A DNA stretch of 64,000 nucleotides from an uncultured candidatus Porisulfidus sp. (GTDB lineage: Bacteria; Pseudomonadota; Gammaproteobacteria; Poriferisulfidales; Poriferisulfidaceae). Every line of letters begins with the position of its first letter. Within the stretch, counting starts at the first letter, position 1. The position numbers were made by a program, and so were the translations under genes. The notes under the pieces were generated by a model. The model saw only the letters and a program-made list of their open reading frames with translations, was not told the DNA's origin and did not search any database. The stretch lies in the NCBI GenBank assembly GCA_965204575.1, contig OZ241993.1, positions 1,568,001 to 1,632,000 of the forward strand, given 5' to 3'. This document shows positions 1,527 through 53,091 of this stretch, one piece after another.

Positions 1527-4500
1527 GTCTCCCCCCCTTCTCGTGCTTGATCTTCCTCCGCTTCCCGCCGCCGGCTCTCGCCTGGGTTGCGGACAACTGT
1601 ATGGCGCGGCCCGCGCCTTGGCCGTCTCCGATCTCGCCCGCCGGAGTTCCGGCCTCACCCTGGTCGTCGCCCCCGACATCGCCGCCCAGGTCGCGCTGGA
1701 AGTCGAATGCCGATTTTTCCTCGGCCCGCAGACAGACCTCCTGTTGTCGTTTCCCGACTGGGAGACTCTGCCCTACGACCTGACCTCGCCGCATAGCGAG
1801 ATCATCTCTCAGCGCCTGCGGGCACTCCATCGCCTCCAAACCCGAAAGGCAAACAACCTGCTGATCACATCCGCCCCCACTTTGCTGCAACGCCTGTGTC
1901 CGCCCGATCATGTCCACCGCCAAACGACCACCCTTTCCACTGGCGGCAAAATCGAAATCGAACAGTTGCGCCAGCGGCTGGACCTGGCGGGTTACCAGAA
2001 CTGCTCCCAGGTCGTGGCTCCGGGAGAATTCGCCGTGCGTGGGTCGTTGCTTGACCTCTTTCCAATGGGAGCCGAGTCTCCATGCCGACTCGACTTCCTC
2101 GACGACTGCATCGACTCCATCCGCATGTTCGATCCCGAACGCCAGACTTCGACCGAACGGATTGAGCGCCTGGACGTCCTTCCGGCACGCGAGTTTCCGC
2201 TCGACCCGGAGACCATCGAGCGGTTTCGGAAGAATTTCCGCAGGGCGTTTGATATTGACCCGTCGCAAAGTCCCATCTACCGGGATATCAGCGACGCGAT
2301 CGTCCCTGTCGGCATTGAATACTATCTGCCCCTGTTCTTCGAGGAGACCGCCAGCCTTTTCGATTACCTGCCCGCTGAAACCACCATCGTGTGCTGGAAA
2401 GACGTGGACGAGGCCGCAGCTCAAACCCTGAGCGAGATCGAGACCCGTTGCGAAAGTCGGCTCCACGATGTTGAGCATCCGCCTTTGCCGGTTCCGATGC
2501 TGTACCTGAGCGAATCCGAATTCCAAGAGGCCCTGGCAGGCTACCCGCGATTGGATCTCAACCGTTTCGAACACGAGAAGCAGTCAGAGGAAGCCGCCTT
2601 CAACTACGCCTCACGCGCGCTCCCGGAACTTAAGGTACGGCCACAGGACAAGATTCCCGCCCGTGCCCTGCGCCAATTCCTCTCCTCTTCTCCACGGAAA
2701 ATCCTGTTCACGACCCACTCCCCGGGACGGCGCGAGCAGTTGAAGGAACGCCTGGGAGCCCTGAACATCCAAGTCAAGCCCATGGAAGGCTGGGAAGACT
2801 TCCTTCGGCAGGGACCGGACCTGGCGCTGGCGGTCGCGGACATCGAAGAGGGTTTCGAGCTTCCCGAGGCCGGAATCACGGTCATTCCCGAGTCGCATCT
2901 GTTCCCGGACCGCACCCCCCAGCAGCACCGCCAGCGGAGCCGGAGAGACCCCAAGGCCATCCTGTCCGAGCTGGCCAACCTCAAGCACGACAGCCCGGTG
3001 GTTCATGAAGACTATGGCGTCGGCCGCTACCAAGGGTTGCGCAAGCTGGAAATCGACGGAATCGAACAGGAATTCCTGCTCATCCAGTACGCCGACACGG
3101 ACCGGCTGTATGTGCCGATAATGGAATTGCACCGGATTACCCGCTACAGCGGCGCGGACCCGGAAGACGCGCCTCTGCATTCCCTGGGCGGGGATCAATG
3201 GCAGAAAATCAAGAACAGGGCTGCGAAACGTGCCTACGATGCGGCGGCCGAACTGCTGGAGGTCCAAGCCCGTCGCAATGCGCAGGGCGGGTGCACAATC
3301 AAAATCCCGTCGGATTACCCGAAATTCGAAGCGGCCTTCCCTTTCGACGAAACCCCGGACCAGGCGCAAGTCATCCGCGAAGTCCTGGAGGGTCTGGAAA
3401 GCGACTCGCCCATGGACCGGATCGTCTGCGGCGATGTCGGCTTCGGGAAGACCGAGGTCGGAATGCGGGCTGCTTTCGCCGCCGCCTTCAACGGCTTCCA
3501 GGTGGCCGTCTTGACCCCGACCACCCTGCTTGCCCAACAGCACGGCAAGACGTTTCGCGACCGGTTCGCTGATTGGCCGGTCCGGATCGAAGCGATCTCC
3601 CGCTTCCGGACTGCCCGGGAACAGGCCGGCATTCTGGCCGATCTCGCCGAGGGGAAACTAGACATCGTCATCGGCACGCACCGGCTGCTGCAGGACGACG
3701 TGAAATTCCGCAACCTCGGGCTGGTCATCATTGATGAAGAGCAGCGCTTCGGCGTGCGCCACAAGGAGAAGCTGAAGGCGCTGCGGGCCCGGACCAACCT
3801 GCTGACCCTGACCGCCACCCCGATCCCCCGCACCCTGAACATGTCGCTGTCCGGGCTCCGTGACCTCTCGATCATCGCGACCGCGCCCGCCCATCGGCAT
3901 GCGATCAAGACTTACGTCACCCAGTGGAACCAGCAGCAGATCCGGGAGGCCTGCCTGCGTGAACTGAAACGGGGCGGGCAGATCTATGTTCTGCACAACC
4001 GGGTCGCTTCGATCGATCAGGCCGCCGAAACCATGCGGCAGGTCGTGCCAGAAGCCGAAGTGCGGGTCGTGCACGGGCAGATGCGGGAACGCGAACTGGA
4101 AGCCGTCATGCGTGACTTCTACCGTCAGCGGTTCAACATCCTGGTCTGCACCACGATCATCGAGAACGGCATTGACATCCCGACCGCCAATACCATCATC
4201 ATCAACCGTGCGGACCACTTCGGCTTGGCCCAGCTGCATCAACTGCGCGGCCGGGTCGGGCGCTCGCACCACCTCGCCTATGCCTACCTGACTTGCCCGC
4301 CCCTGCAGACCATGACACCCGATGCGAAGAAGCGAATCGAAGCCATCGAAGCCATGGAGGAACTCGGTTCCGGCTTCATGCTGGCGACCCAGGATCTTGA
4401 AATCCGCGGCGCGGGCGAACTGCTGGGCGAAGAACAGAGCGGCCAGATCCAGCAGATCGGATTCGCGCTATACCATCGCCTGCTGCAGCGCGCGGTCGAG

Positions 4501-49808: not shown

Positions 49809-49902
49809 AAAACAGTGTGCTCGAATCTACAGCCACCCTAGGAATTCAGGTGGGTGAGCCGCAGGTTGGATTTTACAGGACTGCTTCCGACCGTATTCCG
49901 AC

Positions 49903-50190
49903 CTAAGCAGCCACGATTCGTTCGATGTTAATTTTGTGCTCCAAATCGCGCGACTGGGCAAGATCGAAAGCCAACTGCATACCGAGCCACGTTTCAGGGG
50001 TCGAGCCGAACGCCTTCGATAGACGGTAAGCCATCTCAATGGAAACGGATGCTTTCTCGTTGACCAGATTAGAAAGCGTCTGGCGTCCGACCCCCAGCCG
50101 ACTGGCAGCTTCTGTCACCGATAGGCCCAGAGGTTTCAAACACTCTTCCCGCACGATGATGCCGGGATGCACAGGATTTTTCATTGCCAT
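49903..50190 (-). CDS. higA: HigA-family antitoxin (HTH), separated from its RBS by the insertion
   Basis: MAMKNPVHPG..REE.LKPLGLSVTEAA..LGV.RQTLS and AFGSTPETWLGMQ motifs. Confidence 0.9.
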   Translation of the reverse strand: MAMKNPVHPGIIVREECLKPLGLSVTEAASRLGVGRQTLSNLVNEKASVSIEMAYRLSKAFGSTPETWLGMQLAFDLAQSRDLEHKINIERIVAA

Positions 50191-50195
50191 TTCAG

Positions 50196-50330
50196 GGAAA
50201 TTATGTATGAAAGTTGACAGAGGATTCCTCGCCAACTTTCACCATTTCTTGACGCTTCCCAGGCCGACTGTGGCGGGATGCCCCGCCGGTGTCGCCACCT
50301 CCACGTCCAGTCGCCCCATTCCCGAAGGCC
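50196..50330 (-). ncRNA. Predicted omegaRNA scaffold overlapping the tnpB 3' end and right TIR
   Basis: Hairpin GCCTT-CGGGAAT-GGGGC, hairpin GGCGGG-GCAT-CCCGCC, long terminal stem 50203-50245, and loop GGGAAT complementary to terminal ATTTCC. Folded by eye. Confidence 0.62.
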
Positions 50331-51459
50331 AAGATGTTTAATGCGGCGTTCACATCCGCATCGTCCGCGTGCCCGCAAGCGGTGCACTTGAAGTCTGTTC
50401 CATTTCTGTTTTCTCATCGACGTGCCCGCATGAATGGCACGTCTGGCTAGTGTACGCCGGATGCACATGGCGCATTTCCATCTTGTAGTTCAGACACAGC
50501 TCCAGCGTGCCCCATGCGCTGGCCAGGATCTTCCGGTTGAGTCCTGACTTCTGTTTCACGTTCTTGCCGGGTTTCTCCACCGTGCCCTTGGCCGACTTCG
50601 TCATGCCCCGGATGTTCAGTTTTTCTACGTAAGCGACATCGTACTCGGAGGCAATGCTCTTGCTGACGTGGTGCGCCCAGTTGAGGCGGGCGAAGCGTTC
50701 CGCCTGGTACGCCTTCTGCAACTTCACCTTGGTGATCGCCCTACGGTTGCTTCCCTTCACCTGCCGTGCCATCTTGCGCTGGTAGCGCCTACGTTTTGCC
50801 ACCTTCCTCCCCAAGTCCGGGCCCGGGTACTTCGTGCCGTCCGAAAGAACCGCCCAACCATTCTCGTTTACATTGCGGTCGATTCCGACTTCCCGAATGC
50901 TGTGCGGAAGACTCGCTTCCGCCTGGACTTCATAGGTCAGGTAGGCGTACCACTTGCCGCATTCGTATCTGATCCGCCCGGACTTGAACTCGCCGTCCGG
51001 GTACGGATTGTTGCCGACCAGCTTCATCCAGCCGACCTTCTACACGAGCAGGCTTTCTCCCGCTACTCGTGCTGATTGATAATCAATCGGAAAACTTGGA
51101 ATAGTGCTGTACTTGCCGTGAAACTGCGGCAGTTTCCGGTTCAGTTTCCCGCCGGTCTCCCGATCCTTGAAGAATTCCTTGTAGGCCGTTTCGATAGGCT
51201 TCAAAGAGGTCCGGACCGCTTTTGACGAATAGCCCTGCAGCCACTTCGTCGTGCCATCCTCCCTCCGCATGACGGTGAAGACATGACACAGCGAATAGTG
51301 CCGAAAGTCCGGCTTGATTCCGAATTCGTACTCGTCCCTGAGCTTCCCGACCATGTGGTTCCAGACGAAGCGGCAGGCCCCGGCGGTGCCGTGCAACTGC
51401 TGGTTTTTTCGTGCAGAACCCGGATGCAGGCGGTAGCGGACGGTGCGGGGGACTTTCAT
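50201..51459 (-). pseudogene. tnpB: RNA-guided endonuclease TnpB, disrupted by an in-frame TAG (51040-51042) and a 1-nt deletion (A4 at 50409-50412)
   Basis: RYRLHP..GACRFVWN N-terminus; RuvC motifs GIDRN, VEKL and DADVNAALNI; Zn finger CHSC...CTAC; the repaired ORF is about 419 codons and ends at a TAA inside the TIR. Confidence 0.9.
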
Positions 51460-51465
51460 AGGAAG

Positions 51466-51493
51466 ATTGTCTTCAAGGCTCCCTATTTGTCAA
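51466..51493 (-). promoter_or_regulatory. Putative tnpB promoter with -35 inside the left TIR (leaderless mRNA)
   Basis: TTGACA-16 bp-GACAAT-6 bp-ATG; no SD sequence adjacent to the ATG. Confidence 0.5.
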
Positions 51494-51525
51494 CTTTCAT
51501 ACATAATTCCCCATTCCAGTATCTC

Positions 51526-51591
51526 CTGGTGGTAATCAAGACAGGCAACATCCAAGACCTTCCCCTCCTCGAATCGAAATGTCCTGATTAT
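51526..51591 (-). pseudogene. higB: higB toxin remnant (internal deletion, start codon lost)
   Basis: Reads IIRTFRFEEGKVLDVACLDYHQ, i.e. a HigB-type N-terminus (MIRTFR) fused to a C-terminus (TFRF...DYH); upstream of higA in the reconstructed empty site. Confidence 0.72.
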
Positions 51592-51675
51592 TTGCTTATT
51601 GTTGGTGTCTATTGGCAACAGTCAACCTGAATCCGGACAAATCCCCTTGCTAAAATTGTTTTCAGGCTCACATTC

Positions 51676-53091
51676 ATGACCGAAAAAATCCTTTTCCTGA
51701 CCGGGAAGCTTGCCGAGCGGAGCCTGCATCGCGTGCTGGAATCCATGCAACCGACGGACTTCGACTACGAAGTTCGCCAGGTCGGCGCGAGCGTTGCCGC
51801 GCTGATGACCCCCAAGTTGATCCAGAAACGGCTTGAACTCCCTCCAGGAATCGACCGCATCCTGCTTCCCGGCCGAGTGCGCGGGGATCTGGAACCACTG
51901 GAAGCGCAATTCGGAGTGCCGGTCGAACGGGGTCCCGATGAACTCAAGGATCTTCCCACCTATTTCGGTCGAGCCGCGATGGCGGAAGATCTGACCCGTT
52001 ACGATGTCCGGATCTTCGCCGAAATTACCGAAGCGCCAAACCTTGACCTAGACGAAATCCTGGCCGAGGCCCGCCGCTATCAGGAAGACGGTGCCGACAT
52101 CATCGATGTCGGCTGCCTGCCGGGAGTGGAATTCCCGCATCTGGCCGAAACCGTGCAAATGCTCAAGCAGGAAGATTTCGTCGTGAGTGTCGACTCGCTC
52201 GAAACGCAGGACCTACTCACCGGGGGGCAGGCCGGTGCGGACTTTCTCCTGAGCCTGAAGTCGGACAGCCTGTGGGTTGCCGACGAAGTCGAATCCGTCC
52301 CTATCCTGATCGGCGACAGCAACACAGACCTTGAGTCCCTGTACGCCTGCATTGAAAACTGTTTGGAGAAAGACCAACCGTTTATCGCCGATCCGATCCT
52401 GGATCCCGTCCATTTCGGCTGCGCCGACTCTATCGCCCGGTACGTTGAACTCCGCCGGCGCTATCCAGATATTCAGATGATGATGGGCATCGGCAACCTG
52501 ACCGAGCTGACCCATGCGGATACGGCCGGGATGAATGCTCTCCTGTTCGGCCTGATCTCCGAACTGAAAATCCAATACGCACTGACCACCCAAGTCAGCG
52601 AACACTGCCGGACTTCACTGCGTGAAGCGGATCGTGCCCGAAGAATCATGCGGGCTGCTGCGGCTCATGGAATTCCCCCAAAGGGCATCGACGACCAGTT
52701 GATGATGCTGCACGAGCGACACCCATTCCCATACAGCCCGGAGGAAATCGCCGAATTTGCCGCCCAGGTGAAAGACCCCAATTTCCGAATCCAAGTCGCC
52801 GAAGATGGCGTTCACCTGTACAATCGGGATGGTGAACTGATTCATACGGATCCGCTCGACTTCTATCCGGACCTGAACCTGGACGACGATCCCGGCCACT
52901 TGTTTTATTTGGGCATTGAACTGACACGGGCTCAGATTGCATGGCAGCTTGGCAAACGTTACGAGCAGGACGAAGATTTCCTGTGGGGATGTGCAGTGAC
53001 GGCGTCAACCAAGGATCTGTCGGCTTTCAGGGAAGTCGGCCCTACCCGCCAAAAACACAAGGACGCGATCAAACATAGGAAGGATTCCTGA
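51676..53091 (+). CDS. Dihydropteroate-synthase-like protein (DUF6513; methanopterin biosynthesis Orf20-like)
   Basis: ILFLTGKLAE, RGPDELKDLP, GADIIDVGCLP, DPILDP, GNLTELT and WQLGKRYEQDE motifs. Confidence 0.8.
   Translation: MTEKILFLTGKLAERSLHRVLESMQPTDFDYEVRQVGASVAALMTPKLIQKRLELPPGIDRILLPGRVRGDLEPLEAQFGVPVERGPDELKDLPTYFGRAAMAEDLTRYDVRIFAEITEAPNLDLDEILAEARRYQEDGADIIDVGCLPGVEFPHLAETVQMLKQEDFVVSVDSLETQDLLTGGQAGADFLLSLKSDSLWVADEVESVPILIGDSNTDLESLYACIENCLEKDQPFIADPILDPVHFGCADSIARYVELRRRYPDIQMMMGIGNLTELTHADTAGMNALLFGLISELKIQYALTTQVSEHCRTSLREADRARRIMRAAAAHGIPPKGIDDQLMMLHERHPFPYSPEEIAEFAAQVKDPNFRIQVAEDGVHLYNRDGELIHTDPLDFYPDLNLDDDPGHLFYLGIELTRAQIAWQLGKRYEQDEDFLWGCAVTASTKDLSAFREVGPTRQKHKDAIKHRKDS

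Follow-up and report, generated by a model that had tools for sequence, protein, structure and literature searches.

The window analysed here is a 64,000-nucleotide stretch of the genome of an uncultured Candidatus Porisulfidus sp. (contig OZ241993.1, positions 1,568,001 to 1,632,000 of the forward strand), and all coordinates without a prefix are positions in it. At 50196-51511, between the remnant of a higB gene and a higA-like gene, lies a 1,316-bp element whose sole gene is a tnpB on the minus strand; no transposase is encoded in it. In tnpB orientation the left terminal inverted repeat (TIR), GGGAATTATGTATGAAAGTTGACA, occupies 51488-51511, and the right TIR, ending in TGTCAACTTTCATACATAATTTCC, occupies 50196-50219; the two are 24 nucleotides long and differ by one mismatch. 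Arm detection gave inverted arms of 25 nucleotides at 50195-50219 and 51488-51512 that are 96% complementary, and the 24-nucleotide TIR pattern occurred exactly twice in the window, with none expected from 100 shuffles. The element stands between two copies of an 8-bp direct repeat that agree at 7 of 8 positions, CATTTCAG (50188-50195, by the 3′ end of tnpB) and CATTCCAG (51512-51519, by its 5′ end) on the plus strand, or CTGAAATG and CTGGAATG respectively in tnpB orientation. The tnpB ATG (51457-51459) is 28 nucleotides inward of the TIR at 51488, and the reading frame, followed as in intact paralogues, stops at a TAA (50201-50203) within the opposite TIR. The initial annotation had described just such a unit, enclosing tnpB alone with its start close to one TIR and its repaired stop inside the other, and its length, TIRs, imperfect repeat and cargo are confirmed by these results.

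The tnpB gene (50201-51459, minus strand) is a pseudogene, broken both by an in-frame TAG at 51040-51042 and by a one-nucleotide deletion near 50408, behind which contigs of other strains have an extra T. Its fragments match HTH_OrfB_IS605, OrfB_IS605 and the zinc ribbon Cas12f1-like_TNB. The window copy is dead, a fossil.

The insertion point lies between a GGAGG and the ATG of higA, a helix-turn-helix (HTH) antitoxin-like gene (49903-50190, minus strand; HTH_3 at 1.1e-12). The insertion cuts higA off from the upstream GGAGG, and higA itself is intact, the duplicated 8-mer including its ATG. A comparison with empty higBA alleles had been suggested at the outset, and such alleles were found in three genomes of the same genus (L197, L198 and L199). 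In these the higB-higA junction is uninterrupted and contains the 8-mer once, reading ...GGAGGT[A/G]TTGAAATGGCAATG..., and their HigA orthologues, 91-96% identical to that of the window, are encoded directly behind an intact higB. A fourth genome (L196, the same as L037) is the only sister that has the insertion in common, and there it is flanked on both sides by a perfect CTGAAATG. The mismatch in the window, in the copy at 51512-51519, is therefore a later substitution, and the 7/8 repeat is a true target site duplication (TSD).

The host genome, a single contig of 1.82 Mb, contains seven full-length copies of the element (c1, the window copy, to c7) at 71-100% identity. When these were aligned with their flanks, the TIRs of all seven started with GGGAATTAT or a sequence close to it. 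Further inward the TIRs vary among copies yet agree between both ends of each copy; the TIR of c2, for example, reads GGGAATTATGyAGCAAAATCyGC and that of c5 GGGrATTACTAACATAACTTGACAGACTC. The 8-bp flanks match at 8/8 positions in c4 and c6, at 7/8 in c1, c2 and c5 and at 5/8 in c3, with none in c7. In the alignment of the seven copies the tnpB ATG is about 40-53 nucleotides from the TIR, except in c6, where the TIR has an internal deletion, and in the diverged c7. Five copies encode an intact TnpB of 411-434 amino acids, as listed by longest open reading frame (ORF), and the window copy and one other are pseudogenes. The RuvC residues D194/E279/D369 are invariant in 13 members of the clade, and an intact paralogue (P0001) matched all three Pfam domains and, with 200.9 bits, exceeded the cut-off of 100 for NF040570. 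Copies c1 and c2, at different sites, have one −1 frameshift in common; at least one transposition must therefore have taken place with a broken tnpB. Inside the element c1 and c2 (G000:C1:435815-437025) are 96% identical, and their TIR variants and last hairpins differ. This pattern suggests that recombination has swapped end modules among elements.

The clade of this TnpB was present in 21 of 61 related genomes (f1, 10/15; family f3, 9/19; family f2, 0/17). A scan of a public genome collection yielded 79 related tnpB loci, from metagenome-assembled genomes that include Candidatus Porisulfidus, Oxydemutatoraceae, Arenicellales and Azotimanducus, and from one member of the Opitutales. Both end motifs were detected at 60 of the 79 loci. 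The 8 nucleotides flanking these 60 elements were duplicated perfectly in 25 and at 7/8 positions in a further 8 (33/60 at 7/8 or better), compared with 0/60 for the next 8 nucleotides outward. Five elements with TIRs that bear insertions or deletions (c4, c6, L039, L042 and L061) were missed by the automated end detection; they were read by eye and do not enter the TIR and TSD counts from the 79 loci. The other 19 loci lay at contig edges or had no recognisable motif; among them is an Arenicellales group in which the left end is 300-670 nucleotides upstream, with perfect TSDs in two cases (L158 and L171). The TIR and TSD anatomy is kept down to about 42% TnpB identity, so that the suggested clade-wide association with TIRs was borne out. 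Further copies with like-styled ends and different 8-bp TSDs, named at the outset as support, were found both in the host genome and among the public loci. As to recent transposition, the best pair among the sampled unique sites (L124/L159) is 97.4% identical; one genome (G009) has six copies that are 95-99.3% identical, four of them with TSDs. The L171 element (L171:1624-5234) is 3.6 kb long, has the perfect TSD ATAAATAG and carries a 525-amino-acid ORF upstream of tnpB, which is probably a second, nested transposase.

Ends of the same style were found on transposase-bearing elements. Among 50 transposase loci examined, 23 had an GGGAATTAT-style TIR pair, 20 of these with 8/8 TSDs, and every transposase found between such TIRs was of the IS1595 family. 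In a genome of the same genus (G005), the 2,680-bp element L066 has GGGAATTATGTAGCAAAATCTGCAAGCGCA as both TIRs and an 8/8 TSD. Its transposase is intact (NF033547, 200.6 bits; PF12762 and PF12760), with homologues named only 'IS1595 family transposase', and its passenger is an N6_N4_Mtase DNA methyltransferase fused to an HNH endonuclease. The GGGAATTATGTAGCAAAATCTGCAAGCGCA TIR is also present on two tnpB-only elements of that genome (L042 and L061) and, at 25/26 positions, on c2 of the window's genome. The highest TIR identity between a transposase-bearing and a tnpB-only element was 26/26 (L185, L192), and within genome G044 the TIR GGGAAyTATATACnATTCTGCACA is shared by L074, which bears a transposase, and L063, which bears tnpB. 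A DDE transposase bounded by the TIRs of the tnpB elements had been anticipated, and IS1595-family genes between the same TIRs, with 8-bp TSDs, are what was found. Membership of the ISNwi1 group, named in the initial annotation, is tentative, being suggested by the end motif GGnnATTAT typical of that group, which GGGAATTAT fits. An IS1595 DDE gene occurs in 32 of the 61 related genomes (f1, 13/15; f3, 16/19) and, like the TnpB clade, is absent from all 17 genomes of family f2. Searches for Y1 TnpA (PF01797) gave no match in the complete host genome or in any of 15 congeneric genomes, and matches in 2 of 19 genomes of family f3; a search for serine recombinase/resolvase (PF00239) gave none in the host genome. 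With its TIRs and TSD the element also departs from the IS200/IS605 and IS607 families, which have neither. Methyltransferase passengers were seen in three IS1595-type elements with like TIRs (L066:44-2723, L077:1-2409 and L191, an element of 2,549 bp), and in the host genome a degraded transposase is followed by a methyltransferase gene at G000:C1:1081543-1083483.

We consider it highly probable that the element in the window is a dead copy of a non-autonomous, TIR-bounded element of the IS1595 family which carries as cargo only TnpB and its guide RNA (ωRNA), is mobilised in trans, and may be kept or spread by TnpB-dependent retention or homing. The parts of this reading differ in strength: its anatomy and the assignment to IS1595 are held with good confidence, whereas the guide, the target-adjacent motif (TAM) and the homing mechanism are tentative, with chances put at even or slightly below. 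The anatomy, copies, TSDs, empty sites, ends in common with transposase-bearing elements, RNA covariation and flank asymmetry come directly from computation; mobilisation in trans, guide position, TAM and homing are inferred. A non-autonomous, DDE-mobilised TnpB-ωRNA element had been the central proposal of the initial annotation, and the copies, TSDs, empty sites and IS1595 partners all support it. Judged by its sequence, the element would formally be a mobile insertion cassette, with IS-type TIRs and a TSD, a passenger, and the cognate transposase elsewhere; the concept, as described in PMC3129680, is that of non-autonomous cargo between insertion sequence ends. In the host genome the family is largely fossil, its IS1595 transposase being degraded and two of its copies pseudogenes.

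The last ~140 nucleotides of the element are conserved far beyond the need of the flanking coding sequence. To describe this region (50196-50331 in the window, minus strand, over the 3′ end of tnpB) we used an alignment, A2, of 35 diverse element ends, which are related sequences. The only consensus prediction made de novo by RNAalifold joins the GGGAAU of a loop (50318-50323) to the terminal six bases of the element. This helix is formed by a terminal ATTCCC and an internal loop of sequence GGGAAT; in the window its partners are the terminal ATTTCC (50196-50201) and the GGGAAT at 50318-50323. The pair 52/180 is AU in 22 sequences, UG in 5, GU in 3, CG in 2 and UA in 1, and is broken in 2. Stem 1, which holds the GGGAAT loop, and the variable stem 2 were added to the RNAalifold helix to give a full model. 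In this model 94.1% of cells were paired, against 80.8% in shuffles (0/500), and the covariation score was 0.374, against 0.147 in shuffles (0/500); controls in which the pairing was slid reached at most 65%. A conserved GAAGCGTCAA linker precedes a terminal hairpin (50207-50242 in the window). The hairpin is present between GAAGCGTCAA and the terminal 10 nucleotides in 35/35 sequences, and its 3′ arm, which coincides with TIR positions 11-26, has a median of 11 of its 16 nucleotides paired. The slid controls and the occurrence of several pair types are a better argument for an RNA structure than the shuffles. The right TIR is thus predicted to belong to an ωRNA-like scaffold whose end coincides with the final nucleotide of the element.

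To compare the flanks we set 32 independent sites of tnpB elements, each with a TSD of at least 7/8, against 20 transposase-bearing elements. Position −9, directly 5′ of the left TSD, was a purine in 31/32 tnpB elements and in 11/20 transposase-bearing elements (Fisher p 3.5e-4). Position −10 was never C in the tnpB elements (0/32, compared with 7/20 in the transposase-bearing elements; Fisher p 5.8e-4), and was T in 17 of the 32. No mirror motif was seen on the right flank, where +9 was a pyrimidine in 15/32 and 6/20 respectively. The two positions correspond to 51520-51521 in the window, where they read TA in tnpB orientation (−10 = T, −9 = A, minus strand); in the sister alleles without the insertion they read TA or TG. 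Because the motif is asymmetric, lies opposite the presumed guide and accompanies tnpB only, it resembles a TAM in an empty allele of the form [T-purine][TSD][right flank]. We therefore regard T-purine 5′ of the left TSD as a candidate TAM, its function being proposed from this asymmetry. It agrees with a passage on DDE-associated TnpBs in Altae-Tran et al. 2023 (PMC10691335).

A pathway that would join these features begins with an IS1595-family transposase, encoded elsewhere, which would recognise the TIRs of 24-30 nucleotides and make a staggered cut at insertion, giving the 8-bp TSD. The ωRNA scaffold would be written over the 3′ end of tnpB and the right TIR, with its start expected near the GGCCTTCGGGAAT stem; its last six bases, AUUCCC, would pair with the GGGAAU loop, and the final hairpin would take its 3′ arm from TIR positions 11-26. 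If the family works like the TnpBs already characterised, which are summarised in a 2026 review (PMC13565253), the guide would be the DNA just beyond the right end, that is, the TSD followed by the downstream flank. An empty allele consisting of T-purine, one TSD copy and the right flank would then be a target, to be cut and repaired from the occupied copy, and the outcome would be retention or homing as in IS605-type elements. An occupied site would be spared, having ...TCCC at the TAM position. It is conceivable, though on balance somewhat doubtful, that the outermost bases of the DDE TIR are doubly coded, serving both as transposase end and as 3′ pseudoknot and last hairpin of the guide-RNA scaffold, with the guide starting at the TSD. 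T-purine would on this proposal be the population footprint of TnpB retention or homing, insertions without a TAM having been preferentially lost.

Several observations weigh against the reading as an IS1595-borne TnpB-ωRNA element, or against parts of it. One or both end motifs are absent, or the locus runs into a contig edge, in 19 of the 79 loci, and 27 of the 60 loci with both motifs have a TSD of 6/8 or less. The only IS1595-type DDE gene of the host genome is the degraded one, with an upstream end that resembles the element TIRs, and 53 genomes of the order gave no transposase-bearing element with exactly the TIR variant of the window, 21/24 being the best match. When two IS1595 transposases were compared with the 79 loci by tblastn, only one locus (L163) had the two genes, tnpB and an IS1595-like transposase, enclosed by a single pair of outer ends. 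On the RNA side, the hairpin has a z-score below −2 in only 22 of the 35 sequences; the significance given by the shuffle controls is inflated by relatedness among the sequences; and an Rfam scan of 49900-51800 gave no match at E up to 1. The metatranscriptome evidence, from two runs with small shares only, consists solely of contigs, 90-95% alike, that give no RNA ends. The candidate TAM is weak, being one or two bases that could reflect a cause other than TnpB, and the usefulness of homing would depend on whether the IS1595 mode is cut-and-paste or copy-and-paste.

Two of these cases were considered as evidence and set aside. At L163:2722-5235 (Arenicellales) the transposase, of 296 amino acids, is on the minus strand, and a fused inner-TIR remnant lies at about 3716-3750; there is no TSD. 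This was rejected as an ancestral element with both genes, since the missing TSD and the fused TIRs point to two adjacent elements that have fused. A 727-nucleotide contig from a sponge metatranscriptome, 93% alike, spans 49901-50538 and runs from the 3′ part of tnpB through the TIR into higA, a course compatible with read-through. The metatranscriptome contigs were not used as evidence for an ωRNA or for read-through, as they give no RNA ends and could come from DNA carry-over.

The element might instead be an ordinary IS200/IS605 element of the IS1341 type, tnpB-only and moved as single-stranded DNA by a Y1 TnpA, its inverted repeats and 8-mer being incidental. The NCBIfam model for IS200/IS605 TnpB does match, although below its cut-off (153 vs 425 bits), and the right end contains a hairpin, as IS605 ends do. 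This is very improbable, given the 8-bp TSDs in 33/60 loci compared with none in the outward control, the single 8-mer in the empty sites, the DDE transposase elements bounded by the same TIRs, and the lack of Y1 TnpA in the host and in the 15 genomes of its genus. A composite, in which an IS605-type tnpB element nested in a short IS1595-derived miniature inverted-repeat transposable element and then spread with it, we regard as improbable. The IS1595 elements here do accept methyltransferase cargo, and nesting could well be the ancient origin of the family; no separate IS605 ends are left, however, and their clade-wide absence argues against a recent event. The ATG is close to one TIR in most copies and the stop codon is in the other, an arrangement kept to about 42% TnpB identity. 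That simple nesting is unlikely had been argued from the lack of room for a separate left end; it is now supported because TIR bases belong to a conserved, covarying RNA structure at the 3′ end of tnpB.

The ends could also belong to, or serve, a transposase outside the IS1595 family: a member of a different DDE family with 8-bp duplications, or TnpB itself. No transposase with the exact TIR variant of the window was found, and two further tnpB families of this genome have different TIRs and no identified partner, none having been sought. Against this, all transposases between such TIRs are of the IS1595 family, with TIR identity of up to 26/26, and copies with a broken tnpB have transposed; we give this alternative a small chance. 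The position of the insertion, between higB and higA and parting higA from its ribosome-binding site, might further suggest a domesticated, immobile tnpB that regulates higBA in the manner of TldR. However, the window copy is a pseudogene, no more than a remnant of higB is left, numerous other copies occupy sites with no relation to higBA, the RuvC triad is preserved wherever tnpB is intact, and the insertion is common to one sister genome only, with an empty site in three. Domestication is therefore exceedingly improbable.

Our understanding of TnpB was gained with IS605 and IS607 elements, whose excision leaves no scar and whose insertion duplicates no target sequence; a bacterial family with TnpB on a DDE transposon that makes TSDs is a natural test of how the guide and TAM logic adapts. 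The family described here is convenient as a test system, with many copies, known empty sites and matching autonomous partners, and the predicted overlap of the RNA structure with the transposase binding site adds to its value. In eukaryotes, Fanzor1 and Fanzor2* reportedly reside in TIR/TSD transposons, an observation credited to Bao and Jurka in 2013. The arrangement here is the closest bacterial analogue: like Fanzor, a TnpB-family nuclease sits in transposons of cut-and-paste style with TIRs and TSDs, often as non-autonomous copies. Unlike Fanzor, the host is bacterial, the nuclease is a TnpB of ordinary type whose RuvC triad is the standard one, and the partner is an IS1595-family transposase. 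With the IS1595 family the elements have in common the TIRs, the 8-bp TSD, autonomous relatives that encode a DDE_Tnp_IS1595 transposase with a zinc ribbon, and forms with cargo; Siguier et al. are said to have included members with passenger genes in that family in 2009.

Both the TIR and the TSD of Fanzor enter the guide-RNA scaffold, according to the account in Yoon et al. 2023 (PMC10711439), whereas by analogy with TnpB the TSD here would more probably open the guide than belong to the scaffold. The window element is like the IS1341 group in being a 1.3-kb tnpB-only element with several copies and an ωRNA-like region over the 3′ end of the gene. That group, as characterised in passages of the 2026 review (PMC13565253), has neither TIRs nor TSD and depends on Y1 TnpA; the element of the window differs in having TIRs and 8-bp TSDs, with no TnpA present.

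The closest precedent comes from Altae-Tran et al. 2023 (PNAS, PMC10691335), where a section describes six DDE-associated TnpB branches, DDE-1 to DDE-6, all bounded by inverted terminal repeats; some solo TnpBs have ends nearly identical to those of transposase-bearing elements and are probably mobilised in trans. As in those branches, TnpB is found here inside an inverted-repeat transposon with the 3′ end of tnpB near the transposon end, and the TnpB family studied may already be their DDE-5 branch. In the main-text passages of that paper IS630 alone is named, for DDE-6, and in its supplementary information IS1595 appears within a list of profiles; the corresponding section of the 2026 review (PMC13565253) gives ISL2, IS630 and IS1031 as DDE partners of TnpB. 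Thus neither account, in these sections, names IS1595 as a partner of TnpB. A literature search by title and abstract did not find such an association, papers that mention ISNwi1 proved unrelated, no entry in a literature listing on passenger genes of the IS1595 family names TnpB, and to the extent of these sources TnpB as cargo distinguishes the elements from the known IS1595 cargo forms. The parallel with Fanzor drawn in the initial annotation stands as an interpretation; its novelty was overstated, as DDE-associated TnpBs and solo copies are described in the cited section of PMC10691335. The kind of element is therefore already known; what may be new in detail is the partnership with IS1595, together with the dual-coded end and the asymmetry of the flanks. 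As the general idea is in print, the present case is of value for its particular family, for the dual-coded end and for the candidate TAM.

On the tnpB 5′ side of the insertion, the higB remnant (51522-51618, minus strand) was delimited by comparison with the intact alleles of L197-L199. It has lost its start codon, about 225 bp between short repeats, and its stop codon; the 42-amino-acid ORF that is left gave no Pfam match. Two other tnpB families in the host genome, 37-46% identical to the clade studied here, are also bounded by inverted repeats. Members of one lie around G000:C1 positions 226635, 266716 and 362245, and members of the second around 106698, 164489, 410193, 1158596, 1454030 and 1468320. 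The repeats of one family read GGGAATTGTATACGATAATCCGCAA, and those of the other GGSGCTTCGAGGTTTTGTGTGGAAA with 8-bp duplications such as ATAATAGG. It therefore appears that all 16 tnpB genes of this genome are without IS605 ends.

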